This document shows, piece after piece, positions 32,497 through 44,609 of a stretch of DNA of 64,000 bases. The DNA is from an uncultured Spirochaetaceae bacterium (GTDB taxonomy: Bacteria; Myxococcota_A; UBA9160; UBA4427). The stretch covers positions 876-64,875 of the forward strand of contig CAYTAT010000030.1 in assembly GCA_964435795.1 (NCBI GenBank), read 5' to 3'. The position numbers and the translations under genes are program-made. The stretch's first letter is position 1. Each line of letters opens with the position of its first letter. Below the pieces are notes generated by a model. That model saw only the letters and a program-made list of their open reading frames with translations, had not been told where the DNA came from and did no database searches.

Positions 32497-32612
32497 TCTC
32501 CCGACCGGGGTGCTCGGGGTGCACGCCCCGAATTCGCGCGTCGGGATACATCGAAAACCAGATCGACTGGATTTGTCGCCATCGGAGAGGCATTCCGCCA
32601 TACTTGATCACC

Positions 32613-33191
32613 ATGCCGGGGACCACTCGCCAGCAGCCTGAAGAAGATTGGTACGCCGTCCTCGCAGCATTGCTGGAGGGCGACGCGCTCGCCCTCGCGC
32701 GGCTGACGCGCCTGGTCAACGGGTTCCTGGCCGGCTGGAATGCCTACGATTTTCGAGACGACTGGGACGATCTCCTGCAGGAGGTCGTGATCGCAGCGGC
32801 CACGGCGCTCCAAGAGGATCGCATTCGCGACCGGCGAGCGGTGGTGGGCTATCTGCGAACGACCGCCCGCTTCAAATTCGTGGATCGGCTGCGGCGGCAC
32901 CTGCGCACGAAAGAAGATCAGACCCTGCCCTGGGAAGACGTGGTGGGTCACGATGAACTCACGACCGCGGAAACGGAGCCCCAGGAGGGGATGGCCCGGG
33001 ATGTCCGGCAGGCGCTGGAGCGGTTGCCGGAAAATCGGCGCCTGGCGGTCGTCGGTGTCTACGTGGAGGGAAAGACCTACGAAGCCGTCGCCAAGGAGAC
33101 CGGGATCCCCCTGGGGTCCCTGAAGCGTTATCTACGCGATGGGCTCGCACAATTGCGTGAAGAATTATCGGATTTTCTCGACTCGGGTTGA
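32613..33191 (+). CDS. ECF RNA polymerase sigma factor
   Basis: Region 2 DWDDLLQEV...YLRTTARFKFVDRLRR; region 4 LPENRRLAVVGVYVEGKTYEAVAKETGIPLGSLKRYL. Confidence 0.9.
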   Translation: MPGTTRQQPEEDWYAVLAALLEGDALALARLTRLVNGFLAGWNAYDFRDDWDDLLQEVVIAAATALQEDRIRDRRAVVGYLRTTARFKFVDRLRRHLRTKEDQTLPWEDVVGHDELTTAETEPQEGMARDVRQALERLPENRRLAVVGVYVEGKTYEAVAKETGIPLGSLKRYLRDGLAQLREELSDFLDSG

Positions 33192-33274
33192 TCCCATTGA
33201 GGCATGGAGGCCGACTGTAAGGAGGAGCGGGTACCAGGACCGACTTCGCTGGGTACTCGCCTAAGGGGGTGGAG

Positions 33275-34753
33275 ATGAGCTGTCAGAAATCTACTGAAAT
33301 CGACCTGAGCACCTTTCTCCTGGAAAGGGATGAGAGCCAGTGGTCCGAGTTCCGTGCACACTATCCCGCTTGTGGGGATTGTTCTCGTGAAGTCGCCCTA
33401 TGGTCGAAGCTCGAAAATGCGCTGGGATCATCGAGTCCCGGTCGCGTTCATCCCCCCGAAGAAGAATTGCTCGCCCTGACGACCCTTTCCCTGGACGGCA
33501 TTCGACAAGAGCGGGTCGAGAACCACCTCGCCGACTGCGGTGCCTGCCGGAGTGAAGTGGCCGCCCTGCGCGCCTTTGATTTCTCCGCCGTGATGAGCGG
33601 GCAGCAGGCGGCCGCCATCGCCTTCCAGCCCGAGTCGTCGGAAGCACCGCTCTGGAGCCGCATCCAATCCGGGGTCGGAGAATTCTTCGAATCGATTCGA
33701 GCCAGTTCGCTTCAGCCAGCCCTGATGGCCGCGGCCCTGGTGTTGCTACTGGTTCCCGTCGGTCTTCGGCTCTTCCAGGGGGCGGAGAGCGAAGTGCCCG
33801 CCTCCATCGGCTCCGTTATCGGCTCCGTTCCGATCGCCCAGCAGGAGGCCGTTCCGGCTCCTCGCGAACTTCCGGATGCCGGGCAGCAGCTGGCCCGGGA
33901 GGATTCGCCCCCCGCCAGTGATCCGCTCCCGATCCGGGAAATACCGGTGCTCGAGGAGCCGCTCGAGATCGCGGTGAATGAAGCCGCGCCCCCGGTGGTC
34001 GAGACCGAAGCGCTTCGCGAAAATTCTTCCGCCGTCGCGCAGGCGGAGACCCGGATTCCGGTTTCCAACGACGAATCCCTTCCGGCCTGGGCCGAAGATG
34101 TGGAGGCCGAGACCGTGCTGATCGCGGCGCTGCTCCCGGACGATCTTCCCCTCTACGACGTGGCCGGTATCGCTTCCCTCGGCGGTCCGTCTGTCCGCAC
34201 GGGGGGCTTCGCACGCTCCTTATCGGGCCGGACCCCGAGTGTGCGCCTCTTCTCGCCCGAGCATGTCGGTTGGACGAGCAAAGCCTCGCCAACCCTTTTC
34301 TGGGAACTCTCCCAGGCCAGCGATCTGCCCCTCGAGATCGTCATCGGCAGCGACGAAGAACTCGTCCCGCTGCTGGAAGTCAGGCTGTCCGGTCCTCACG
34401 CGGCGGGCGTCCAGGCGATTTCCCTGGCCGAAGCCGGAGTGAAGCTGGATCCGAATCGGGTCTACCGCTGGTCCGCATCGCTGGTCGTGGACGAGCAGCG
34501 TCGGTCCCGCGACGTGGTCGCCGGATCCGCGCTGATGTTCCGACCTCCTCCAGAAGCCGAAATGGCCGACTTCCAGGCCGCCCCGGCCGGGCATCTCGCC
34601 CACCGCTTTGCGGCGCGTGGCTACTGGTACGACGCCTTCAGTCAGCTTAACCTGTGGCTCGAAGAGGAGCCCCAGGATGCCCGCCTACTCGATCACCGCA
34701 GGGCCCTGCTCAAGCAAGTGGGTCTGGTCTCCGATTCCGGGAATTCCCGGTAG
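33275..34753 (+). CDS. Membrane anti-sigma factor: two zf-HC2 zinc fingers, TM helix, acidic/Pro-rich linker, C-terminal DUF928-like domain
   Basis: HYPACGDC and HLADCGAC (HxxxCxxC); TM ALMAAALVLLLVPVGL; DUF928-like GWTSKASPTLFW, YRWSASL and FAARGYWYDA. Confidence 0.8.
   Translation: MSCQKSTEIDLSTFLLERDESQWSEFRAHYPACGDCSREVALWSKLENALGSSSPGRVHPPEEELLALTTLSLDGIRQERVENHLADCGACRSEVAALRAFDFSAVMSGQQAAAIAFQPESSEAPLWSRIQSGVGEFFESIRASSLQPALMAAALVLLLVPVGLRLFQGAESEVPASIGSVIGSVPIAQQEAVPAPRELPDAGQQLAREDSPPASDPLPIREIPVLEEPLEIAVNEAAPPVVETEALRENSSAVAQAETRIPVSNDESLPAWAEDVEAETVLIAALLPDDLPLYDVAGIASLGGPSVRTGGFARSLSGRTPSVRLFSPEHVGWTSKASPTLFWELSQASDLPLEIVIGSDEELVPLLEVRLSGPHAAGVQAISLAEAGVKLDPNRVYRWSASLVVDEQRRSRDVVAGSALMFRPPPEAEMADFQAAPAGHLAHRFAARGYWYDAFSQLNLWLEEEPQDARLLDHRRALLKQVGLVSDSGNSR
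33806..33829 (+). repeat. In-frame 12-bp tandem duplication (IGSV x2)
   Basis: ATCGGCTCCGTT occurs twice in a row. Confidence 0.85.
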
Positions 34754-34807
34754 GAGAAGAATCGAAACGTCGGCACGCAGCCGAACTGGGCTGAACGGGA
34801 AAGAATC

Positions 34808-37150
34808 GTGCGCCCGCTGATTCTTCCCCTATTGATTCTTCCCCTGAGCGTTCTGCTGATCCATTGCGCCGATTCCCGACGGCTCTCGAATGCCGAGGAC
34901 GGGATGCGGGGTCAAGAGTTTCTCGAGCGCGGTGGCTTTGCCCTGCAGCGGGGCGATTTCGAAGCCGCATTGGCGGACCTCACACTCGCGAAAGCCTTGA
35001 CGGCACGTTCGGGCGACGTCGAGGGCCACTACCGCGCCCTCATGGGGCTGGCCCGGGCCGAGGGGGCCCTGGGAGAGTTCCCGTCGGCGCAACGAGATCT
35101 GCGCCTGGCCCTGGCGGATGCCGATGCCCTCGGAGACGCGGAGAAGCACGCGCGTGCGCTGGTGGCCCTCGGAGGAGCTCAATTGGCCCTGGGAGATTCA
35201 ATAGCGGCCCGGGAGACACTGGGCGCCGGCGAGCGGATCGCCCGACGAGGCGGATTCGATCTGGCCCTGGCCGCCGCCCTCAACGACCGGGCCAACCTGG
35301 CGCGACTGGGGGGGGAAGAGGCGTCGGCCGTGGTCCTCTATTCGGAGGCGGCGGCGGCGGCCGAGCGAGCCCGGCGCCCCGCTCTGGTTGCGCGAATTCT
35401 GGCCAATGCGGCTCGAACCCTTCGGGCGGATCCCGAGCGTGCACTTTCGCTTCTCGTGAGCGCAGAGCGAGAGTTGGCGGAATCGGGGGATTCCCATGCG
35501 CTCGCGGAGTTGCTGCTGAATATCGCCCAACTCCACCGGGAACGAGCGCCGACCCCGCCGGTCGGGGAGCCGGGACCCCATGCCAGGGAAATCGCCCATG
35601 CCAGGGAAATCGCCAATGCCAGGGCGCTCGCTCTGCTCGAGCGGGCCCTGGGCGTAGCGCAGCGTGTGGAAGATGATCGGATGGCGTCCCACGCCCTGGG
35701 ATTGATGGGCGAGGTCTACGCCGAAGAGGGTCGTCCCGGAGAAGCCCTCGCGGCGAGTCGACGGGCCCTGGTCGTGGCTCGTGATCTGGACGGTCCGGAA
35801 ATCGTCTATCGCTGGCATGCCCAGGTGGGTCGCCTGCTCTTCGCAGCGGGCGAAAGCGACGGGGCCGCCGCCGCCTATCGCCGCTCGGTGGCCCTGCTGA
35901 ATCGCTTGCGCGATCGCCAGGCCTGGGCGGCGGCTCTGTCGGAGTCCTCCTTCGAAAGCAGGCTGGCGCCGATCTATTATGAGTTCGTCGAGTTGCTCCT
36001 GGAGAGTGCGGCGGCGGCTTCGGATCCCGGCGAGGAGCAGAGTCTCCTATCCGAGGCGCGGCAGGTGATGGAGAATCTCAAGGTCGCCGAATTGCGGGAT
36101 TACTTTCGCGATGACTGCGTGGATTCCCAGCGCGCCCGGGTGCAGAGTCTGGAGAGCGTTTCGGACCGGGCCGCGGTCCTCTATCCCATCCTGCTCGAGC
36201 GGCGTCTGGTGCTCCTGCTGGGACTCCCCGGTGGCCGACTCGAGCAGATCAGCGTGCCGGTACCCAGGTCGGAAGTCGAAAATACGGCCGAGCAATTTCG
36301 CGATCACCTGGAACATCGGGCGACACGTCGTTTCCTCCCCCACGCGGTTCGCCTCTACGATTGGCTCATCGCCTCCATCGAGAACCGGCTGCGGACCGCG
36401 CGGATCGAGACCCTGGTCTTCGTACCCGACGGAGTGCTGCTCACGATTCCGATGGCGGCCCTGCACGACGGGGAACGATTCCTGGTGGAGAAATTTTCCT
36501 TGGCGACGACACCCGGCCTCGATCTCGTCGATCCCGCCGCCCTGATGCGTCCAGACCTGAAATCCATTGCTGCCGGGATCTCAAAATCCATCGCCGGGCA
36601 GCCTCCGCTTCCATGGGTCGCCCGGGAAATTCGCCTCGTGGAGTCGCTGCTCGGGGGAGAGATCCTGCTCGACGATGACTTCCAACGCGCGAACCTGCGG
36701 GCCTCCCTGGAAGCGGAAGATTTCGGCGTGGTGCACATCGCCACTCACGCGCAATTTTCAGCTCGCTCCGAGGAGACGTATCTTCTGACCTGGGATGGTC
36801 GCCTCGGTCTCGATGCGCTGGCGGATCAGATCGGCCTCTTCCGTTTTCGGGATCAACCCCTCGAACTCCTCACCCTCAGCGCTTGCGAGACGGCCCAGGG
36901 GGATCGGCGTGCGGCGCTGGGCCTCTCCGGGGTCGCGGTCAAGGCGGGTGCTCGAAGCGTGTTAGGCAGTCTCTGGAGTGTCAATGACGCCGCGACCACG
37001 CTCGTGGTGGGGGAGTTCTATCGCGCCCTGCTCGAGGGCAACTCGAGGGCCCAGGCCCTGCAACGTGCACAAATCCTGCTCCTGACCGACTTTCGCTATC
37101 GGCACCCCGCCTTTTGGGCTCCCTTTTTATTGATTGGGGCATGGCTCTAG
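34808..37150 (+). CDS. Exported TPR-CHAT (caspase/HetF-like) protease
   Basis: Hydrophobic N-terminus ending LIHC; TPR-like helices; CHAT motifs LVFVPDG, VHIATHAQF (His), LTLSACETAQGD (Cys), GARSVLGSLWSVND, HPAFWAPFLLIG. Confidence 0.92.
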   Translation: MRPLILPLLILPLSVLLIHCADSRRLSNAEDGMRGQEFLERGGFALQRGDFEAALADLTLAKALTARSGDVEGHYRALMGLARAEGALGEFPSAQRDLRLALADADALGDAEKHARALVALGGAQLALGDSIAARETLGAGERIARRGGFDLALAAALNDRANLARLGGEEASAVVLYSEAAAAAERARRPALVARILANAARTLRADPERALSLLVSAERELAESGDSHALAELLLNIAQLHRERAPTPPVGEPGPHAREIAHAREIANARALALLERALGVAQRVEDDRMASHALGLMGEVYAEEGRPGEALAASRRALVVARDLDGPEIVYRWHAQVGRLLFAAGESDGAAAAYRRSVALLNRLRDRQAWAAALSESSFESRLAPIYYEFVELLLESAAAASDPGEEQSLLSEARQVMENLKVAELRDYFRDDCVDSQRARVQSLESVSDRAAVLYPILLERRLVLLLGLPGGRLEQISVPVPRSEVENTAEQFRDHLEHRATRRFLPHAVRLYDWLIASIENRLRTARIETLVFVPDGVLLTIPMAALHDGERFLVEKFSLATTPGLDLVDPAALMRPDLKSIAAGISKSIAGQPPLPWVAREIRLVESLLGGEILLDDDFQRANLRASLEAEDFGVVHIATHAQFSARSEETYLLTWDGRLGLDALADQIGLFRFRDQPLELLTLSACETAQGDRRAALGLSGVAVKAGARSVLGSLWSVNDAATTLVVGEFYRALLEGNSRAQALQRAQILLLTDFRYRHPAFWAPFLLIGAWL
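35578..35624 (+). repeat. In-frame 18-bp tandem repeat (HAREIA, about 2.6 copies)
   Basis: CCATGCCAGGGAAATCGC twice, followed by CAATGCCAGGG. Confidence 0.85.
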
Positions 37151-37497
37151 GGGAATAACGACGGCTGCTCGGACCGCTCACGGGGGTTCTCGTTGGGGCG
37201 ATCCCCTGCCGCGAGGTTCCACTTGCGGCCCTGGATTTTTCCGCCGCAGGGCGTGCGAAGGTGCTTTGCAGGCATCCTGGTAGCAGCGGGTGGGCCGTTC
37301 TGATGCGACACTGCCCCGTGGGGGAAACTTAAGGGGTCCGATTTCCATTGTTCTTACGACTTCCCTTTTACGGCTTCCGTGGGAGAGCAATTGCCATTAA
37401 GTGAAAAGCGGAGAGAAACCGAAAAGTTCTTGCGCTCAAAGGTCAATTATGAGCCTAATCGAAAGTGTTTTATGAGATGTGGCCCCCTTATCCACGA

Positions 37498-37539
37498 CGA
37501 CACGTCACCTCCACGACACGTCACCTCCATGATACGTCA
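37498..37539 (+). repeat. 16-bp direct repeat in an intergenic/promoter region
   Basis: CGACACGTCACCTCCA twice exactly, then partial TGATACGTCA. Confidence 0.85.
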
Positions 37540-37586
37540 GCGTATTTTCGAGGCTGGGGATGAAAGGGCGCTCACTCGAGATTGAG

Positions 37587-40361
37587 ATGTCGATCAGAAG
37601 GAAAATCAGCTGGGGCGGCCTCTTCTTGGCCTGCCTGCTACTGGCGGGGCAGAGTGCGCTTGCGGCTCCTCGGGCATTCTTCTGTCCCGTTGACGACGGG
37701 CTCTGCAACTGTCTGCCCTCGGGCCCCGATGCCAATTGGATCGTGAACTGGGCTGACCCCACCAACTTGCCTCTTACCTGGGACCTCTGCCTGCGAACCG
37801 ACGAGGACGCGACGACGACGGGCATAAAATGTAGCGACGGTGATGGCGACGAACTCTGCGGTTGGAGGGTCGATCTGGAGAGCGTCAGTATCGCCATTCA
37901 GGCTTTCACGCCAACTTCGGCAACGGTTACGGGCGTTGGCTACAGCCTGACGAGTTCCACCCTCTCGATCAGCTGGGTAGATGCCGACGAACCCATGAGT
38001 GCAGGAACCGATCACCACCTGGGCGCCGTGGAGTTCTCGCCCCTCCACAGCACCGGTGAAATGAGTTCGCTCGCTACCAGCGAGGCCGTGGATGCGGATC
38101 TGGATCCGGTGGTGATTTCGATGGATCACGGCCGTCTGGTCCCCGAGCCCTCGCAGGGCCTGCTGCTTGGCGCGGGGCTCCTCGGTCTCCTGGGCCTGGC
38201 GCGACGCCGTCGATGTGCCGGGTCGGTCGCGGGGTTGCTCCTCGCGCTCCTGCTGATGACTCCGGCACGGGCGGATATCGTGGGGAGCAGTTGGCAACTC
38301 ACGAATCAGGAACTGGGCCATACCGACTTGGAGTTCGGGCATCGGAGCCTGGTGGGAATCGGTGATGTCAACGGCGATGGCGTCGAGGATCTCGCCGTGG
38401 GGCTTCCCTCCGCGGAAGCCGGACAGGGCGCCGTGTTGATCGTGATGATGAAGCGCGACGGGACGGTCTGGCGCTCCCAGCGCATTGGGGCCGGAATCGG
38501 AGGCTTCAATGGGGCCCTCGGCTCGGGCGCACTCTTCGGTCTGGCCGTTGCGTCTCTGGGAGATCCGGACGGGGCGGCGGGTCCCCTCACAGGACTTCTG
38601 GCGGTCGCCGCGCCCGGCGATGGCACGGTGTGGTTGCTCGGTTTAGGCGTCGGTTCGGGAGTGGGCCGCGAGGTCGAGATCGTGACGGAGGCTGGTTTCG
38701 CGTGGGCGGATACGGCTATTCGCGCCCTGGCGAACGCTGGGGATCTCGATGGCAACGGATCGAATGATCTGGCCGTGGGTCGGCCGGGCGATGGCAGGGG
38801 TTGCGAGGGACTCGCAGTCGCCTGCGGCACGGTGGAAATCGTCCTCCTCGGTCCCAGCGGTAACAGCCTGGGTATGCATTTGCTGCAGAGCGGGAACAAT
38901 GGGATGCCGATCCTCGCCGCGAACGAAGCATTTGGGAGCGCCATTGCGGGCGTGGGCGATGTGGATGGCAACGGTGTGCCGGACCTCGCGGTGGGAACTC
39001 CCGGCCATTCCGGAGCCAACGGCGGCCTGTTGATTCTGACTTTCGCTTTGCCTCCCCAGGTCTTGTCGAGTCAGCGGATCGATATCGATTCGGTGGGCTT
39101 TTCACCCTTTCAGCCCCTCATGGGCGCGCTGGGTCAGAGCCTCATATCCCTTCCAGATCTGGATAGCAACGGAGTTGACGATCTTGCCGTGGGCATCCCG
39201 GCCGTTTCGGGAGTCGCCAGCGGTGAAGGCGCAGTGGTTTTCATCATGCTGGATGCCCTGAGCGGTATCGAGTCGATCGCCGTACTCGATTCCGCCTCCC
39301 TCGAACTCCCCCAAGCATTCGGAGACGGGACTGGATTCGGCGAGGCCCTGGCCACGACCCTGGCCCCGGACATGGGCTCGCATCGAGTCTTCGTGGGCAG
39401 CATCTCAAGCGGGATCGGGGGCCTGCCCGACATCCGTGCATTTCTCCTCTCGGATCAGGACGCCGATCTGCATCCGGATTTTGCCGACAATTGCCCGACG
39501 CTGCGGAATACCCTGCAGGCGGATGGCGACGGGGACGGCGTGGGGAACTATTGCGACAACTGTCCATTCATTCTGAATGACGACCAGTCCGACGTTGATT
39601 TCGACGGCCGCGGCGATCGCTGCGAACCGGCGCGGATCATTCTCACGGATGAGACTGTGGGTGGTGGCACCCCGGCCTGGAAATTGGAACTCGAGTGTGG
39701 GGCCTACGAGGTGACGGATCTCGTCGCGGCCCTGGTTGCGTCTGGGCAGAACGGAGTCGCCCTGAGTTGGATGAGCAGCCTCACCTTTGGAGGTGGCTGT
39801 GAAGCCCCCCTGGGCTTGGGGGGGCAGGGCTGTAGTTCGAATCCCGACCTTGGAGCCACCGTGGACGCCGGGACGTCGGGGGCATTCATGACGGATTCGA
39901 GCGGATCGTTCGGAGTGCTCCCGACCCTGAAAGAATCGACGATGTACGTCCAGCTGGCCGGAAACTCAGGCGCTGCGGCAGTGGACCTCTGCGCCCCCAA
40001 CGGAGGCAGGGTTCTGCTGGGCAACCTCAGCGCAAATGCCCCGGCCCCTGGAAGCGGAGAAGACGCCTATCTGACCCTGAGGATGGATGGTCATAATGGC
40101 GCCTTCGGCGTCGGCCCGATCGAGGGCGGCATCCCGGCCCTGGTCGTCCCCATCCAGACGGTGGACTTCGAGGTGGTGAATGTTTCCGAAGTCGCAGCTG
40201 TTTCCGGCGGATTCCATGCCCCGATTACCTGGAGCCCCGAGAAGGCGGATGCTGATCCGAGCATTACGAAGTCCCCCGTTGAGCGTTTTCCCTGGCTGGA
40301 CCTCGATTTTCAGGTTGGCGAGGGTGCCATCTTTGGCGCGCCGCGAGGGGGCCACAGATGA
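37587..40361 (+). CDS. Secreted multidomain protein: N-terminal domain + internal PEP-CTERM + second signal peptide + FG-GAP repeats + TSP3 Ca-binding repeats + C-terminal beta domain
   Basis: Signal ending SALA; VPEPSQGLLLGAGLLGLLGLARRRR; FG-GAP repeats GDVNGDGVEDLAVG, GDLDGNGSNDLAVG, GDVDGNGVPDLAVG, DLDSNGVDDLAVG; TSP3 DNCP...QADGDGDGVGNYCDNCP. Start may be 37560. Confidence 0.85.
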   Translation: MSIRRKISWGGLFLACLLLAGQSALAAPRAFFCPVDDGLCNCLPSGPDANWIVNWADPTNLPLTWDLCLRTDEDATTTGIKCSDGDGDELCGWRVDLESVSIAIQAFTPTSATVTGVGYSLTSSTLSISWVDADEPMSAGTDHHLGAVEFSPLHSTGEMSSLATSEAVDADLDPVVISMDHGRLVPEPSQGLLLGAGLLGLLGLARRRRCAGSVAGLLLALLLMTPARADIVGSSWQLTNQELGHTDLEFGHRSLVGIGDVNGDGVEDLAVGLPSAEAGQGAVLIVMMKRDGTVWRSQRIGAGIGGFNGALGSGALFGLAVASLGDPDGAAGPLTGLLAVAAPGDGTVWLLGLGVGSGVGREVEIVTEAGFAWADTAIRALANAGDLDGNGSNDLAVGRPGDGRGCEGLAVACGTVEIVLLGPSGNSLGMHLLQSGNNGMPILAANEAFGSAIAGVGDVDGNGVPDLAVGTPGHSGANGGLLILTFALPPQVLSSQRIDIDSVGFSPFQPLMGALGQSLISLPDLDSNGVDDLAVGIPAVSGVASGEGAVVFIMLDALSGIESIAVLDSASLELPQAFGDGTGFGEALATTLAPDMGSHRVFVGSISSGIGGLPDIRAFLLSDQDADLHPDFADNCPTLRNTLQADGDGDGVGNYCDNCPFILNDDQSDVDFDGRGDRCEPARIILTDETVGGGTPAWKLELECGAYEVTDLVAALVASGQNGVALSWMSSLTFGGGCEAPLGLGGQGCSSNPDLGATVDAGTSGAFMTDSSGSFGVLPTLKESTMYVQLAGNSGAAAVDLCAPNGGRVLLGNLSANAPAPGSGEDAYLTLRMDGHNGAFGVGPIEGGIPALVVPIQTVDFEVVNVSEVAAVSGGFHAPITWSPEKADADPSITKSPVERFPWLDLDFQVGEGAIFGAPRGGHR

Positions 40362-41422
40362 GCGGGTCGAAGCGCTTGCGATTCTCCGCGGCGGCGTCGA
40401 AACCGTCTCTCATGCGGGCTCTGCTCCTTCTGGTTCCCTTCTTCCTTTTTCAGGGGCCTGCGGCGGGGGCGCCGGTCAATGTCGACATCACTCTGACCCC
40501 CTTGGCGGGCGAAAGTCTTTCGTCCGTGACGACCTGGGAACTCTGCTTTACGGCGGATGCGCCGATCCATCGCCTGTCGGTCGGCGTCGAGGCTCCCACG
40601 GGCTACGGGGGCTCAATGACTTGGAATGGCTGCGACGTCTCAGAATCGGTCGGCTGGTTGAGTTGTCGGGCCTCGGGAACTCTGCCCTATACGAGTGTCG
40701 ACGCCTCGAATTCTTTCGCCGAGGAATATTCGGGCAGGCTTTTTGTCTCGCTGTCGGGGAATCTGGGAGTCGCGGATGGGAAGCTGAACCCCATGATCAA
40801 TACCCCGGTCTGTGTGGCCCGACTGATCTTCAGCACGGGCCTCAATACCGAGTTGCCCACCTCGGATATGCCCTCCTTGCTCTCGCCGACCTATCCGGAT
40901 CTCAGCGCCTCCCCGGCGACCCTGCAGTGGCCCTATCCGATTGCCCCCTCGGACCCCTGTGAGGAGCCGGTAATCGTCGATGGGGAACTCTCGTTCTGTC
41001 TCCCGCCGGCGGATGGCGCCTTCTATACGCCTACGGCTGCGAATACTCGTGCGGACGATCAGGACGGCGATTTGAGGAGAGACGAGGAAGACAACTGTCA
41101 GTACACTGCGAACGAATTGCAGGAGGATGAGGGTGGTCTTGAGACCAACTCGGCGGATGGGGCGGGGGATGTTTGCCAGTGTGGCGAGGGGGAGGGAACC
41201 GGCTCGATTTTTCCGCAACCCACTGAAGATGACCTCTCCAACATGCTCCAATATCTCAGGGAAGGAACCGCCACCGGTTTTGATGTCGGGCGATGTACCG
41301 TCGCCAGCGCATCGAATTTGCTGGGCTGCAGCATCCACGATGCCGTGGTATTGGATCGGGCCCTGCGCGCTGCTTTTTCTGAAGAGTTGGAAAACGCCTG
41401 CGAGGCCTACAACCCTCCCTAG
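40358..41422 (+). CDS. Secreted protein with beta domain, TSP3-like repeat and dockerin-like C-terminus
   Basis: Signal ending PAAGA; DQDGDLRRDEEDNC; DGAGDVCQCGEGEGTG...DDLSNMLQYL...CSIHDAVVLDRAL; ATGA overlap with the upstream gene. Confidence 0.75.
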   Translation: MSGSKRLRFSAAASKPSLMRALLLLVPFFLFQGPAAGAPVNVDITLTPLAGESLSSVTTWELCFTADAPIHRLSVGVEAPTGYGGSMTWNGCDVSESVGWLSCRASGTLPYTSVDASNSFAEEYSGRLFVSLSGNLGVADGKLNPMINTPVCVARLIFSTGLNTELPTSDMPSLLSPTYPDLSASPATLQWPYPIAPSDPCEEPVIVDGELSFCLPPADGAFYTPTAANTRADDQDGDLRRDEEDNCQYTANELQEDEGGLETNSADGAGDVCQCGEGEGTGSIFPQPTEDDLSNMLQYLREGTATGFDVGRCTVASASNLLGCSIHDAVVLDRALRAAFSEELENACEAYNPP

Positions 41423-41423
41423 A

Positions 41424-44400
41424 GTGAATTCCCCTGGCGCAAGCGGGGGACATGCGCTCGCTATCGATTTCCGGAGTTCCGCCGCATATGCGGTCCGCGG
41501 AGTGGCGCTTTGCTGGGGATTACTGCTGCTCTTCGGCTTCCCCCAGCGGGCCTCGGCCCAGTCGCCGTCCAATATCGACTGGGGGGGACTCGAGACGGCG
41601 ATTGCCACGGATGGCAGTCTCCTGGGAGTTCCGAAAACGCCCGTGGCGCCCGTGGAGGGGGATCCCCATCTCTACGAGATTTCGGACGCCCTCGGGCAGC
41701 GTCTGGGCAGCAATCTTTTTCATAGCTTCGAGTCTTTCGACCTGAGCGGCGAAGACACGGCCCGCTTCATCGGCGCAGCGGCGTCGAACGTCATCAGTCG
41801 CATCACGGGGGGCGCGGCCTCGCGCATCGATGGCAAAATCGAATCCCGGATATCGGCCGCCGACGGATCCGACGCAACTCTCTATCTGCTGAATTCCTCG
41901 GGCATTCTCTTCGGTCCCTCGGGCGAATTCGACACCGCGTCCGTGGCCCTGGCGACGGCGGATCGCCTGCGCTTTGACGCGGGCATCTTCGCCACCTCGC
42001 CGCAGTCGCCGGATACTCCGGGGATCGAATGCTGTGCGGGAGAACCGATCGCATTCGAATTCGACGGCGCTTCCTCGGCCCGGATCGATTTCGATGGCCG
42101 GGCCGAGGGCCAGAAAGCTCTCTACCGCTGGGAAGACGGCGGCTCGCTCCAGATCGTCGCCTCCGAGATTCGGGTCGAGGGTACGGATCTTCAGACGGAG
42201 GGTGGAACCCTCTACTTTTCGGCCGTCGGTTCGAATGCGGGGTCGATTCCTCTGGGGCTCAGCGGGGATTTTTTAGCGCCTCCCGTTCAGCCGGAAGCCG
42301 GGGCGATCGAGGTGTCGGATGGGAGCCTGCTTTCCACCCTCGCGACCGGGAACTCAAACGGGCGCGTGGTTCTGCGCGCCGGTCAACTGGTCTTCGAAGA
42401 CAGCTCCGGGATCGAAGCCGGCGGAGACGGCCAGGGCGTGGCGATCGATCTGGTGGCCAGCCAATCCATCCGCATCTGGAACCGTTCGCGATTGGTCGAT
42501 GAGGGTGCCCCCACGAGCGATTTTGGAGGTGCGGAGGGTATTCGCCTGGAGGCCCCGAGAATCGAAATCGCGAAGCAGAGTTGGTTGGCCTCGGGCTCCC
42601 AGGCGAGTACCTGGGCGGGCCCCATCCGCATCCTGGCGCAGGAGAGTTTCCATTTGGGAAGCGCGGAGGTGATACGCGATCGTTCCTATATTCGCTCGAG
42701 GACCTCGGCCGACAGGCCGGGTGGGGAGATCCTGATCGAGGCCGGTTTCCTGAGCCTGGCCTCCGGCGCCAGCATCCAGAGCGAGGCCAGCCGGTTTGCG
42801 ACGGCTCGGGCTCCGGGGATTCGCGTCGAGGCCGAGACGATTTCCATGCGGGGGGAGTCCATGATCTCCTCGGTGAGCAAGGCTTCCTCCCCGGGCGGCG
42901 ACCTGCACCTGATCGCGTCGTCGGCCCTCGAGTTGGTCGACGGATCGGTGCTGAAGACGCGGCCCGATGGCAGCGGCGATGCGGGTTCGATCGAGGTGGA
43001 TGCCGGTTCGCTTTCCCTGGTCGACGGTTCGCAGATTTCCTCGGAGACGGATGGCGAGGGCGCTCCAGGGGATATCGCGCTTCGGGTCGAGGGGCAGTTG
43101 CTCGTTTCGGGGGTGAAGGAATACGACCCCGGAGTGGTCGCCCAGGCGGGAATCCTGGCCCGCACCCTGGACTTGGCCCCCGCCGGCGTGGAGGGTGGAG
43201 ATATCGAGATCGACGCGGGTAGTCTCGAGGTGAGCGAGGGCGGGCTGATCTCGGTTCGTGGCTTCGGGTTGGCGAGTGCCGGAAATATCGACATCGATGT
43301 GATCTCGAGCCTGCGCGTCTCCGGTGAATCGGGTGGCGAGGCCTCGAGGTCCAGCGAAATATCGGCCCGGGGAGTGCGCGGGGGAAGTGGCGATATCGTG
43401 TTGAAGGCCGAAGAAGTCGAGGTGCTCGCCGGTGCGGCGGTGAGTGCCACCACCACGGACAGCGGAAATGCGGGTGATGTGGAGATCACCGCGGATCTTC
43501 TGCGGGTATCCGGTCATTCAATTCCCCGCGGATCGGTGGATCCCCAGCCCTCGGGCATCTATGCGGAGTCGACATCGCCGATCGCGGACGCGCTTGCGGA
43601 GGTTGGAGGGGCGGCGGGCAGTCTCATCCTGCATCTCCAGGAGGGCCTGGAGGTTAGTGATTCGGGGAAGCTGTCGGTGCGCACTCATGGAGGGGGGGCG
43701 GCGGGAGTATTGGAAGTGACGGTTGCACGGGGTTCGATCGCGATTTTTAACGACGGCCTCCTGCTCTCGGAGTCTCTATCCCGTGCCGGCGGGGCCGGGG
43801 CTGCGGGAAATATTCTTCTCTCCGCCGCCGGAAACCTGGCCGTCAGATCGGGAGGACGCCTGGAAGCCACGACCGCCAATGTGGACGCGGGTGATATTCG
43901 CCTGGATGCGGGCGGATCCGTCAGCCTGGTCGACGCTCTGGTGAGCACCAACTCCGATCTGAAATTGGGAGGCAATATCCACCTCGACGCCGTCGAAAAA
44001 GTGGAGGTGATCCGCAGCGCGATCGAGACGAATGTGGGGGGGGCGGGGGACGGGGGCAATATCTGGATCGGGCAGGGAAGGGTCGACCCCCCCGAACCGC
44101 CGCGCTACGCGGTGTTGGCCGATGGCCGGGTGACGGCGACCGCGGAAGCGGGAAGGGGCGGTTTTATCGAGATTGCGGCCGACCACTATCTGAAATCCGT
44201 GGGGAGCCGGGTGGATGCTTCCTCGGAACTCGGGGAAGACGGCGAGGTCGAGGTGGCGGCGCCGGAAGTTCGCGTCGGGGGGAATATCGTACCCCTCGAG
44301 GTCGCCTATCTCGACCTGGATCGCCTGCTGGCCCGTCCCTGTGCTGCCCGCAGCCAGTCGGATCGCAGTTCCCTGACCGTCGGGGGACGCCCGGGCATCC

Positions 44401-44609
44401 CGGCTGATCCGGAGGGGATGCTGCCGTCTCCCATTCTGATGGTTGCCGATGAGCTCCCGGAAGCGAGTCGCGCAGCGCGGGAGAGACTCGCTTCCGGGCT
44501 CGGCGTTGCCGCTCCGAGACCGCACGCCGCGGCATTCAATCAGGGCCCCGGAGTCGGTTTTCTGCCCGGCTTCCATCCCAGGAGTACGTGTTCGACGGGC
44601 CTGCGGTAG
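41424..44609 (+). CDS. Filamentous-haemagglutinin N-terminal (TPS) domain beta-helix exoprotein
   Basis: Signal ending RASA; GSNLFHSFESFDL, NVISRITGGAASRIDGKI, LYLLNSSGILFG; many GG/AG-x-I-x-I-x-A repeats; C-terminal ASSELGEDGEVEV...PCAAR...GRPGIP. Start uncertain. Confidence 0.88.
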   Translation: MNSPGASGGHALAIDFRSSAAYAVRGVALCWGLLLLFGFPQRASAQSPSNIDWGGLETAIATDGSLLGVPKTPVAPVEGDPHLYEISDALGQRLGSNLFHSFESFDLSGEDTARFIGAAASNVISRITGGAASRIDGKIESRISAADGSDATLYLLNSSGILFGPSGEFDTASVALATADRLRFDAGIFATSPQSPDTPGIECCAGEPIAFEFDGASSARIDFDGRAEGQKALYRWEDGGSLQIVASEIRVEGTDLQTEGGTLYFSAVGSNAGSIPLGLSGDFLAPPVQPEAGAIEVSDGSLLSTLATGNSNGRVVLRAGQLVFEDSSGIEAGGDGQGVAIDLVASQSIRIWNRSRLVDEGAPTSDFGGAEGIRLEAPRIEIAKQSWLASGSQASTWAGPIRILAQESFHLGSAEVIRDRSYIRSRTSADRPGGEILIEAGFLSLASGASIQSEASRFATARAPGIRVEAETISMRGESMISSVSKASSPGGDLHLIASSALELVDGSVLKTRPDGSGDAGSIEVDAGSLSLVDGSQISSETDGEGAPGDIALRVEGQLLVSGVKEYDPGVVAQAGILARTLDLAPAGVEGGDIEIDAGSLEVSEGGLISVRGFGLASAGNIDIDVISSLRVSGESGGEASRSSEISARGVRGGSGDIVLKAEEVEVLAGAAVSATTTDSGNAGDVEITADLLRVSGHSIPRGSVDPQPSGIYAESTSPIADALAEVGGAAGSLILHLQEGLEVSDSGKLSVRTHGGGAAGVLEVTVARGSIAIFNDGLLLSESLSRAGGAGAAGNILLSAAGNLAVRSGGRLEATTANVDAGDIRLDAGGSVSLVDALVSTNSDLKLGGNIHLDAVEKVEVIRSAIETNVGGAGDGGNIWIGQGRVDPPEPPRYAVLADGRVTATAEAGRGGFIEIAADHYLKSVGSRVDASSELGEDGEVEVAAPEVRVGGNIVPLEVAYLDLDRLLARPCAARSQSDRSSLTVGGRPGIPADPEGMLPSPILMVADELPEASRAARERLASGLGVAAPRPHAAAFNQGPGVGFLPGFHPRSTCSTGLR

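Follow-up and report, generated by a model that had tools for sequence, protein, structure and literature searches.

Control of sigma factors by CHAT-domain proteases has recently been demonstrated or proposed twice: for the cytoplasmic, CRISPR-associated craspase and for the fused protein DdvA, the signal and the cleavage of the latter being unproven. In the craspase of type III-E CRISPR systems, the tetratricopeptide repeat (TPR)-CHAT protein Csx29 acts with Cas7-11 to cut Csx30, relieving the inhibition of CASP-sigma (PMC10028731). In the DdvA/DdvS system of Myxococcus xanthus, described in 2024, a transmembrane anti-sigma factor carries a periplasmic TPR-CHAT region, which has been proposed to take a self-cleaving site-1 role that lets RseP act (PMC11506125). 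The reference scheme for such cascades is that of RseA, on which a periplasmic site-1 cut by DegS is followed by a site-2 cut by the M50 protease RseP (PMC10028731, PMC11506125). Finally, in the PUMA3 system (VreA-VreI-VreR) of Pseudomonas aeruginosa, a sigma factor of the extracytoplasmic function (ECF) type drives a neighbouring two-partner secretion (TPS) system (PMC2729926). Here we analyse a cassette of six genes at positions 32613-44609 of a 64,000-nucleotide stretch of DNA from an uncultured bacterium of the Myxococcota (contig CAYTAT010000030.1; hereafter the window). The cassette encodes an ECF sigma factor, an anti-sigma factor ending in a DUF928 domain, an exported TPR-CHAT protease, two predicted surface or secreted proteins, g4 and g5, and a TpsA-like passenger of two-partner secretion. 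All six genes lie on the + strand, as a previous sequence-only reading of this DNA had placed them, and every cassette feature given coordinates below is on that strand.

Comparison with described systems

DdvA/DdvS and the cassette come from the same phylum, and both have an ECF sigma factor held by a single-pass zinc anti-sigma factor together with a periplasmic TPR-CHAT protease of the craspase/separase type. Whereas DdvA fuses the TPR-CHAT region to the anti-sigma factor, the cassette encodes its exported CHAT protease separately and its anti-sigma factor ends in DUF928. The active site of DdvA is described as incomplete, and its gene lies in an island of CRISPR and cyclic-oligonucleotide-based anti-phage signalling (CBASS) genes (PMC11506125); in contrast, the catalytic dyad of the cassette's protease is invariant, and the module to which it belongs includes TpsA/TpsB and surface proteins. 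Between the anti-sigma domains of the two systems there is a faint sequence likeness (E 0.2). Because its CHAT protease is a separate gene, the cassette is not a member of the DdvA type, but it may work like DdvA.

The craspase likewise has a TPR-CHAT protease whose target holds an ECF-type sigma factor, but that system is cytoplasmic, RNA-guided and CRISPR-bound, whereas here the CHAT protease is exported and its candidate substrate is a membrane anti-sigma factor with DUF928. We met no cas genes in the cassette or among the flanking genes examined, which cover ~21.9-53.3 kb of the window, and the CHAT protein has an export signal; the cassette is thus not a type III-E craspase. With the RseA-type cascade it shares a single-pass anti-sigma factor and, in the window genome, an RseP-like gene; the site-1 protease of that cascade is a serine protease of the DegS/Prc type, whereas the candidate here is an operon-encoded cysteine protease of caspase fold. 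PUMA3 resembles the cassette in that one locus, with a TPS system next to it, brings together an ECF sigma factor, its regulator in the inner membrane and a component of the outer membrane. Unlike PUMA3, however, the cassette has no TonB-dependent transducer-like protein, its DUF928 and CHAT components lack a PUMA3 counterpart, and TpsA and TpsB are candidates for the sensor side and not only targets.

We conclude that the cassette is real and represents a split form of protease-gated ECF signalling that is as yet uncharacterised, although the principle is already known (PMC10028731, PMC11506125). The sequence-only reading had cast it as a CRISPR-independent, trans-envelope cascade from a CHAT protease to a sigma factor. 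Taken as a claim to the first such route this is overstated: DdvA, which went uncited there, was published in 2024 (PMC11506125). New, as far as the literature searched goes, are the split arrangement, DUF928 as a sensor cap that CHAT is predicted to target, the connection with two-partner secretion, and CHASE2 and ECF as two outputs of one module. In that literature we found no account linking the CHAT domain to two-partner secretion or to CHASE2, nor DUF928 to CHAT, ECF and anti-sigma factors, with the proviso that supplementary tables of ECF classification may list DUF928 anti-sigma factors; DUF928 was named only in PMC5587647.

Since the cassette separates parts that DdvA fuses, binding, cleavage site and signal become testable in trans by co-expression. 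The reading developed below is also a first concrete hypothesis for DUF928, and it covers the recurrent DUF928/CHAT/TpsA/TpsB/CHASE2 neighbourhood as well. If true, it would link two-partner secretion to transcription and to second-messenger signalling via a bacterial relative of the caspases.

An ECF sigma factor and a zinc anti-sigma factor with a DUF928 domain

The first gene (32613..33191) encodes an ECF (group IV) sigma factor of 195 aa. Sigma70_r4_2 (E 1.9e-11, 43.9 bits vs a cut-off of 25.7) and Sigma70_r4 matched above cut-off, as did TIGR02937 (sigma70-ECF; 62.4 bits vs 42.9), while Sigma70_r2 reached 21.3 bits, just under its 24-bit cut-off. The protein has sigma2 and sigma4 regions only, which places it in group IV. 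Its closest solved relatives are RpoE of Rhodobacter sphaeroides and SigH and SigE of Mycobacterium tuberculosis, and all solved relatives found are ECF sigma factors. As a start, the ATG at 32613 is likelier than the TTG at 32604 given in the open reading frame (ORF) list. The anti-sigma gene follows on the same strand after a gap of 77 bases. This pair is kept in 22 of 23 related loci, namely those that reach the sigma position, the contig of the remaining one (L010) ending there. The two proteins are very probably a cognate pair.

The anti-sigma factor (33269..34753; 494 aa) is recognised as a single-pass zinc protein by Pfam and NCBIfam profiles, by its motifs and by an AlphaFold2 (AF2) model. 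It comprises two zinc-motif bundles (residues 1-57 and 58-135), a transmembrane helix (150-173), a disordered, Pro/Ala/Glu-rich tether (174-282) and DUF928 (320-486). Both bundles contain an HxxxCxxC motif with an upstream ligand (C5/H31/C35/C38 and H61/H86/C90/C93). All of these eight residues but C5 and H61 are invariant across 51 homologues, and those two are nearly so, a pattern that assigns the protein by sequence to the class I zinc anti-sigma factors (ZAS/zf-HC2) and predicts zinc binding. The zf-HC2 profile itself matched residues 75-94 with 20.6 bits, just below its 22.2-bit cut-off; an NCBIfam anti-sigma profile matched with an E of 2.1e-6, and residues 59-104, around the second motif, gave weak profile matches to the anti-sigma domains of RslA, DdvA and ChrR. 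The tandem bundles (window 33269-33680) have equal spacing. N-terminal-only matches in the search of 401 genomes described below show that the same double zinc N-terminus also exists with other periplasmic domains.

As the anti-sigma domain is cytoplasmic, DUF928 lies outside the inner membrane. The domain (PF06051; 34226..34726) matched with an E of 5.5e-21 and 75.6 bits against a cut-off of 26, over positions 13-176 of the 184 in the model. In the AF2 model of the whole protein, the mean predicted local distance difference test (pLDDT) score is 77.4, with block means of 84-96 for the zinc-bundle helices, below 50 for the tether and above 90 over residues 321-480. DUF928 is modelled as an immunoglobulin (Ig)/fibronectin type III (FN3)-like beta-sandwich (~320-424) and a four-helix bundle (429-483), and the ~110-residue tether is long enough to extend toward the outer membrane. 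A Foldseek search with the model returned three matches at E <= 0.001, all of them generic Ig/FN3-like sandwiches without a functional lead. Just before the sandwich stands an arginine motif, PSVRTGGFARS (residues 307-317; 34187..34219), a candidate docking or cleavage loop for the CHAT protease, with a block-mean pLDDT of 61-70 when modelled alone. Pfam bore out the domains that the sequence-only reading had claimed for the cassette, including DUF928 at the C-terminus of the anti-sigma factor.

An exported TPR-CHAT protease

The third gene (34808..37150) encodes a caspase-like protease of 780 aa, exported and probably a lipoprotein, in which a signal segment with a Cys (residues 1-20) is followed by an N-terminal TPR solenoid (~23-445) and a C-terminal CHAT domain (513-778; PF12770, E 1.5e-57, 195.7 bits), an architecture typical of TPR-CHAT proteins. 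The AF2 model (pLDDT 85.6, predicted template modelling score 0.80) places H647 after a strand at 641-645 and C693 after a strand at 687-691, as in caspase-fold enzymes. The dyad codons lie at 36746-36748 (H647) and 36884-36886 (C693). H643, H647 and C693 are invariant in all 15 orthologues, in keeping with the intact His/Cys dyad read earlier from the window. With the profile match, this dyad places the protein in the CHAT family and predicts catalysis; its invariance argues that catalysis has been kept but does not indicate the substrate.

A charged and then hydrophobic N-terminal segment, mostly with a Cys directly after it as in lipoproteins, is present in 14 of 14 orthologues with strong matches, judged by eye and by a crude hydrophobicity score, with two of the starts uncertain. 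The claim that the CHAT protease shares an extracytoplasmic compartment with DUF928 is supported accordingly. In Foldseek, the top protease matches of the model were Csx29, DdvA and separase (E 5e-15 to 1e-11), among them Csx29 (8eex_B) with an E of 5e-15, DdvA (8rw5, 8rot) at ~2-3e-13 and separase at 2e-12. A sequence search against solved structures gave ten matches, all to TPR proteins and none to a CHAT protease, so that the kinship with Csx29, DdvA and separase rests on comparison of folds.

A predicted complex of the CHAT protease with DUF928

We modelled CHAT protein residues 22-780 (15-row alignment) together with anti-sigma residues 270-494 (51-row alignment). The interface score ipSAE was 0.77, 0.79 and 0.76 in three runs, compared with 0.00 for the best of three controls. 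The runs have at least 97% of their contacts in common, and the pLDDT of the partner is at least 84. Residues 645, 647, 649, 691-692 and 694 of the protease, at or beside the dyad, belong to the interface, and so do its residues 723-730 and 761-772. The anti-sigma factor contributes residues 307-322, which include the arginine motif, and a loop at 410-415.

These partner residues are the best conserved of the whole DUF928 family. Of 95 stand-alone DUF928 proteins, 90 have R310, 93 have R316, 86 have R412, 82 have S413 and 90 have D415. In searches of solved structures we found no DUF928-CHAT complex, and the anti-sigma profile matched no solved DUF928 chain; with no solved template found, it seems unlikely that the predictor reproduced a complex already known to it. 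The contact between the CHAT protease and the DUF928 region that the sequence-only reading proposed to model is supported, by model only, and we consider direct binding of the two probable. A flexible, invariant arginine loop in the interface with the dyad looks like either a cleavage site or a pseudo-substrate, two roles that the model does not separate.

Conservation of the module

Database searches returned 39 proteins matching the anti-sigma factor, most of them full-length at 36-50% identity. The named homologues come from metagenome-assembled genomes (MAGs) of Myxococcota or from 'delta proteobacterium', except for two, L012 and L013, which are labelled uncultured Spirochaetales; these labels could stem from a binning or labelling error or from transfer. 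In the named MAG records, nine of ten loci have a CHAT gene no more than 10 kb away from anti-sigma-DUF928, the tenth being a contig of 1,960 bases. In seven of the ten, the order of genes is that of the window over the full extent of the contig, and across these records the six genes recur together whereas the flanks do not. Two others hold sigma factor, anti-sigma-DUF928, CHAT and TpsA in another arrangement; in one of these, TpsB (ShlB and POTRA_2 domains) stands divergently upstream of the sigma gene and CHAT is convergent.

A profile search of 401 Myxococcota genomes gave matches in 42, full-length in 17. Among 13 further Myxococcota loci, CHAT was present in seven (one of them a weak match at 29% identity) and TpsA with TpsB in six. 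Of the six loci lacking CHAT, five are contigs 7-16 kb long, and the remaining one is an additional copy whose genome has a complete module elsewhere; over the named and further loci together, short contigs account for six of the seven without CHAT. Where 40 kb could be retrieved, seven of eight loci had CHAT and six of eight had TpsA and TpsB. Gene orders include sigma/anti-sigma/TpsA/TpsB/CHAT, TpsA/TpsB/CHAT/sigma/anti-sigma and convergent blocks. That order and orientation differ between loci argues for functional linkage, and the conserved gene set asserted in the sequence-only reading holds up in the synteny search it had suggested, the linkage surviving rearrangement. Recurrence of the same genes together in many diverged genomes puts the arrangement far beyond chance. 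From these comparisons, the core of the module is the sigma factor, anti-sigma-DUF928, TPR-CHAT, TpsA and TpsB, with g4 and g5 as a clade-specific addition.

Two-partner secretion genes

The sixth gene (41424..44609) encodes a TpsA-type passenger of ~1061 aa. Its ORF spans 41127-44609, and the GTG at 41424, directly after the g5 stop, is the likely start. The N-terminal TPS domain expected of a TpsA protein is present, matching PF05860 (E 3.9e-21, 76.5 bits vs 33.5) and TIGR01901 (49.2 bits vs a cut-off of 29.1). The sequence-only reading had called the product an 'FHA-domain protein'. The label is apt in the sense of filamentous haemagglutinin, to which the TPS domain belongs; no forkhead-associated domain was found, and we rejected that sense of the abbreviation on the strength of the Pfam and TIGR matches.

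That TpsB is part of the module in relatives was absent from the sequence-only reading. Genomes G078 and G183 have the window's six genes followed by TpsB at the end, after TpsA, and TpsB is linked in six further loci. It was not found within 8-10 kb downstream in two genomes of the same genus (G233 and G143). In the window genome, TpsB genes are located on contigs C24, at the contig end, and C83.

The wider DUF928 family and CHASE2 loci

The DUF928 family comprises 2,568 representative clusters (50% identity, E <= 0.001). Among the best 150 representatives, 39 match the window's anti-sigma factor by pattern, with a pair of HxxxCxxC motifs, a hydrophobic helix at about residues 94-168 and a C-terminal DUF928; two more have a single motif, and short secreted forms make up 98. 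Stand-alone DUF928 proteins begin with a signal-like hydrophobic segment. The second DUF928 protein of the window genome is of this stand-alone kind and adjoins a CHASE2-adenylate/guanylate cyclase and a Crp-type regulator (C22:40882-43620). The genome holds parts of a second, CHASE2-type module scattered over contigs, with a TpsA-TPR frame running off a contig end (C76:2-4435), the CHAT part of which is presumably unassembled, and a TpsB gene at the end of contig C24 (C24:76870-78633).

We examined 20 other Myxococcota DUF928 loci, hand-picked from ~45 partial matches in favour of contig room and hence not a random sample. A CHASE2-cyclase was present in 16, CHAT in seven, TpsB in six and a sigma factor in two, and two had none of these; five of the 16 CHASE2-type loci have CHAT and TpsB as companions. 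These DUF928 and CHASE2 pairs resemble the cassette in a DUF928 with the same arginine motif and in their CHAT and TpsB companions. They differ in that their output is a nucleotide cyclase and their DUF928 is free and secreted, whereas the cassette acts through an ECF sigma factor and has its DUF928 as part of the transducer protein.

Gene fusions follow the same lines. The TPS domain is fused to the protease as TPS-TPR-CHAT (1520 aa) and as TPS-CHAT (1252 aa). A protein of 932 aa (P0161), which has CHASE2 and nucleotide cyclase domains, an additional hydrophobic helix and DUF928 at its C-terminus, corresponds on the CHASE2 side to the fusion of anti-sigma factor and DUF928. Fusions that pair TPS with CHAT, and CHASE2-cyclase or anti-sigma factor with DUF928, support the idea, put forward in the sequence-only reading, that the anti-sigma factor replaces CHASE2 as the output. 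The stand-alone pair on C22 and the prevalence of CHASE2-cyclases among the 20 loci agree with it.

A promoter-like motif and a candidate regulon

The motif TGATCC-N17-CGACT occurs in the gap between CHAT and g4 in eight of eight relatives. We trained a weight matrix solely on these g4-upstream sites, which themselves score 23.8-28.5. Independently of the training sites, the matrix found sites scoring >14 at the junction of the sigma and anti-sigma genes in seven of the eight loci that include it. The window is among the seven, with an ECF-type promoter-like site at 33185..33220 (score 18.8) whose function we infer. Sites also occur upstream of the sigma gene in four of eight loci. Upstream of the window's g4, the match is GGTCC-N17-CGACT at 37330..37365. 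In a genome-wide scan, 122 of 10,065,070 positions scored >14 and 18 sites >18. The cassette may itself be the regulon of its sigma factor.

The motif resembles the promoter type of the RpoE group in R. sphaeroides. In the form TGATCC(G/A)ATT-N-CGACT it is seen at many other places in the genome, for example C39:40103, C41:33811 and C23:35825, and it may be a shared promoter type of an ECF sigma family. By eye, a CATACT/GATACT hexamer stands 7-9 bases 5′ of the sigma ATG in the window (32595-32615) and in six relatives (L005-L009 and L011), which suggests a leaderless or very-short-leader transcript from a housekeeping-type -10 element. A sigma-70 promoter scan gave one site, against 1.5 expected.

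Proposed mechanism and alternatives

We propose that the cassette is a trans-envelope, protease-gated ECF module. As a whole chain from CHAT cut to sigma release, we hold this proposal tentatively, at somewhat less than an even chance. On the complex model, the CHAT protease would bind DUF928 at the arginine motif (307-317). On a signal it would cut at or near that motif, removing the DUF928 cap; the remaining periplasmic tail would be trimmed, after which an RseP-like site-2 protease would cut the membrane helix and free the sigma factor. The sigma factor would then read the TGATCC-N17-CGACT promoters before anti-sigma/CHAT and before g4-g5-tpsA. TpsA and TpsB, as an outer-membrane pair on the sensor side, may govern the state of the protease, as fusions and synteny suggest. 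An RseP-like M50 protease is encoded in the genome (PF02163 at C10, E 2.4e-60, in a 609-aa frame), which is a weak test given that such genes are near-universal.

Several observations weigh against this chain. If the cut fell at residue 310 or 316, ~135 periplasmic residues would stay attached to the anti-sigma factor, which exceeds the length that RseP-type proteases are usually thought to accept, so that additional trimming must be assumed. The interface is known at the level of a residue list and not of the partner residue that faces C693. TpsB was sought in the cassette and not found, so the TpsA gene lacks the adjacent TpsB gene of a standard two-partner pair. A second-copy pair of sigma factor and anti-sigma-DUF928 (G398:C5) has no CHAT gene within 20 kb. 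The window's own promoter match upstream of g4 is weak, with a matrix score of 12.4, and the motif is frequent enough in the genome, at 18 sites scoring >18, that it may belong to several sigma factors.

The step from binding to cleavage is where the first alternative enters. DUF928 might be a docking or pseudo-substrate (inhibitor) domain, with the TpsA filament or g4/g5 as the real CHAT substrates; the anti-sigma factor would then report whether CHAT is bound or busy, and would then either be broken down by other proteases or be switched through a conformational change. The complex model, which places binding at the active site, cannot tell a substrate from an inhibitor. The TpsA-CHAT fusions join the protease physically to TpsA, and stand-alone DUF928 proteins bear the same arginine motif yet are no anti-sigma factors. 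A precedent for the processing of such filaments is the Bordetella TpsA protein FhaB, the C-terminal prodomain of which is described as processed by periplasmic proteases (PMC8263021). However, the arginine loop, flexible when modelled alone and invariant among homologues, resembles a cleavage loop, and an invariant dyad speaks for retained catalysis, whatever the substrate. We regard this alternative as unlikely, though with enough behind it to be taken seriously.

A second alternative dispenses with the protease as a regulator. The sigma/anti-sigma pair would sense another cue, such as a ligand or the state of the envelope, via DUF928, with CHAT, g4, g5 and TpsA as regulon only and the predicted interface a false positive. 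ECF regulons commonly adjoin the sigma gene, as with VreI of PUMA3 and its neighbouring TPS system (PMC2729926), and 13 of the 20 other DUF928 loci have no CHAT in the retrieved stretch, a point that also counts against our proposal. The mark set for the interface score was met by 58 of 80 solved complexes and by 2 of 110 mismatched pairs, a calibration that is only roughly valid with custom alignments such as ours, and the binding is to be read as model confidence. Yet the three runs agree, with a score of 0.77 against 0.00 in all three controls, and the interface coincides with the most conserved residues of the family, information that was not given to the model. CHAT moreover remains linked in scrambled loci and also stands beside DUF928 at CHASE2-type loci, which fits a sensor component better than a target gene. 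This alternative therefore appears improbable. That the genes are unrelated neighbours by chance, a general possibility for which only the unrelated flanks speak, can be set aside almost entirely, as the six genes recur together without their flanks and, in different families of the phylum, the core remains linked despite rearrangement.

The protease-gated proposal can be extended to the whole DUF928 family. DUF928 would then be the dedicated recognition and cleavage module of TPS-linked periplasmic CHAT proteases, in a widespread, modular surface-to-cytoplasm system with a filament as sensor, the protease as switch and an interchangeable output, either an ECF sigma factor or a CHASE2 cyclase. 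At this breadth the idea is possible but rather doubtful. If true, it would define a class of signalling from the cell surface that does without TonB-type transducers.

Flanking genes and surface proteins

The genes that flank the cassette encode BKACE, a 3-hydroxyacyl-CoA dehydrogenase and a PMT_2 glycosyltransferase, metabolic and glycosyltransferase functions unrelated to it. A PADLOC scan of the six proteins matched no defence family apart from one TPR hit, and we rejected a known defence system as an explanation on that basis. Between CHAT and g4 there is a gap of 409 bases, and within it, after the CHAT gene, a terminator-like hairpin (37208..37229; 8-pair stem with six G-C pairs and a T-rich tail), a likely operon boundary. 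The region has six terminator-like sites against 8.6 expected from shuffles; as this number is not above that of shuffles, the support for the hairpin is positional only.

The gene after this gap, g4 (37560..40361), encodes a predicted surface protein of 933 aa with a Cys-rich N-terminal domain, a PEP-CTERM-like anchor at residues 194-218, FG-GAP repeats and calcium-binding TSP_3 repeats. It is followed by g5 (40358..41422), which encodes a predicted secreted protein of 354 aa with a TSP_3-like repeat (22.7 bits, under the 25-bit cut-off) and whose orthologues occupy the corresponding place in L005-L007, L009-L011 and G183. The anchor of g4 is internal. TIGR02595 matches above cut-off at residues 194-218, and residues 194-245 run from a PEP-CTERM-like motif (VPEP, a hydrophobic segment and an Arg-rich segment) into a second segment resembling a signal peptide, after which comes the FG-GAP/TSP_3 part. 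This one-frame architecture is present in eight of eight sequences, the window's included, and g4 could be a two-part precursor cut by exosortase and signal peptidase.

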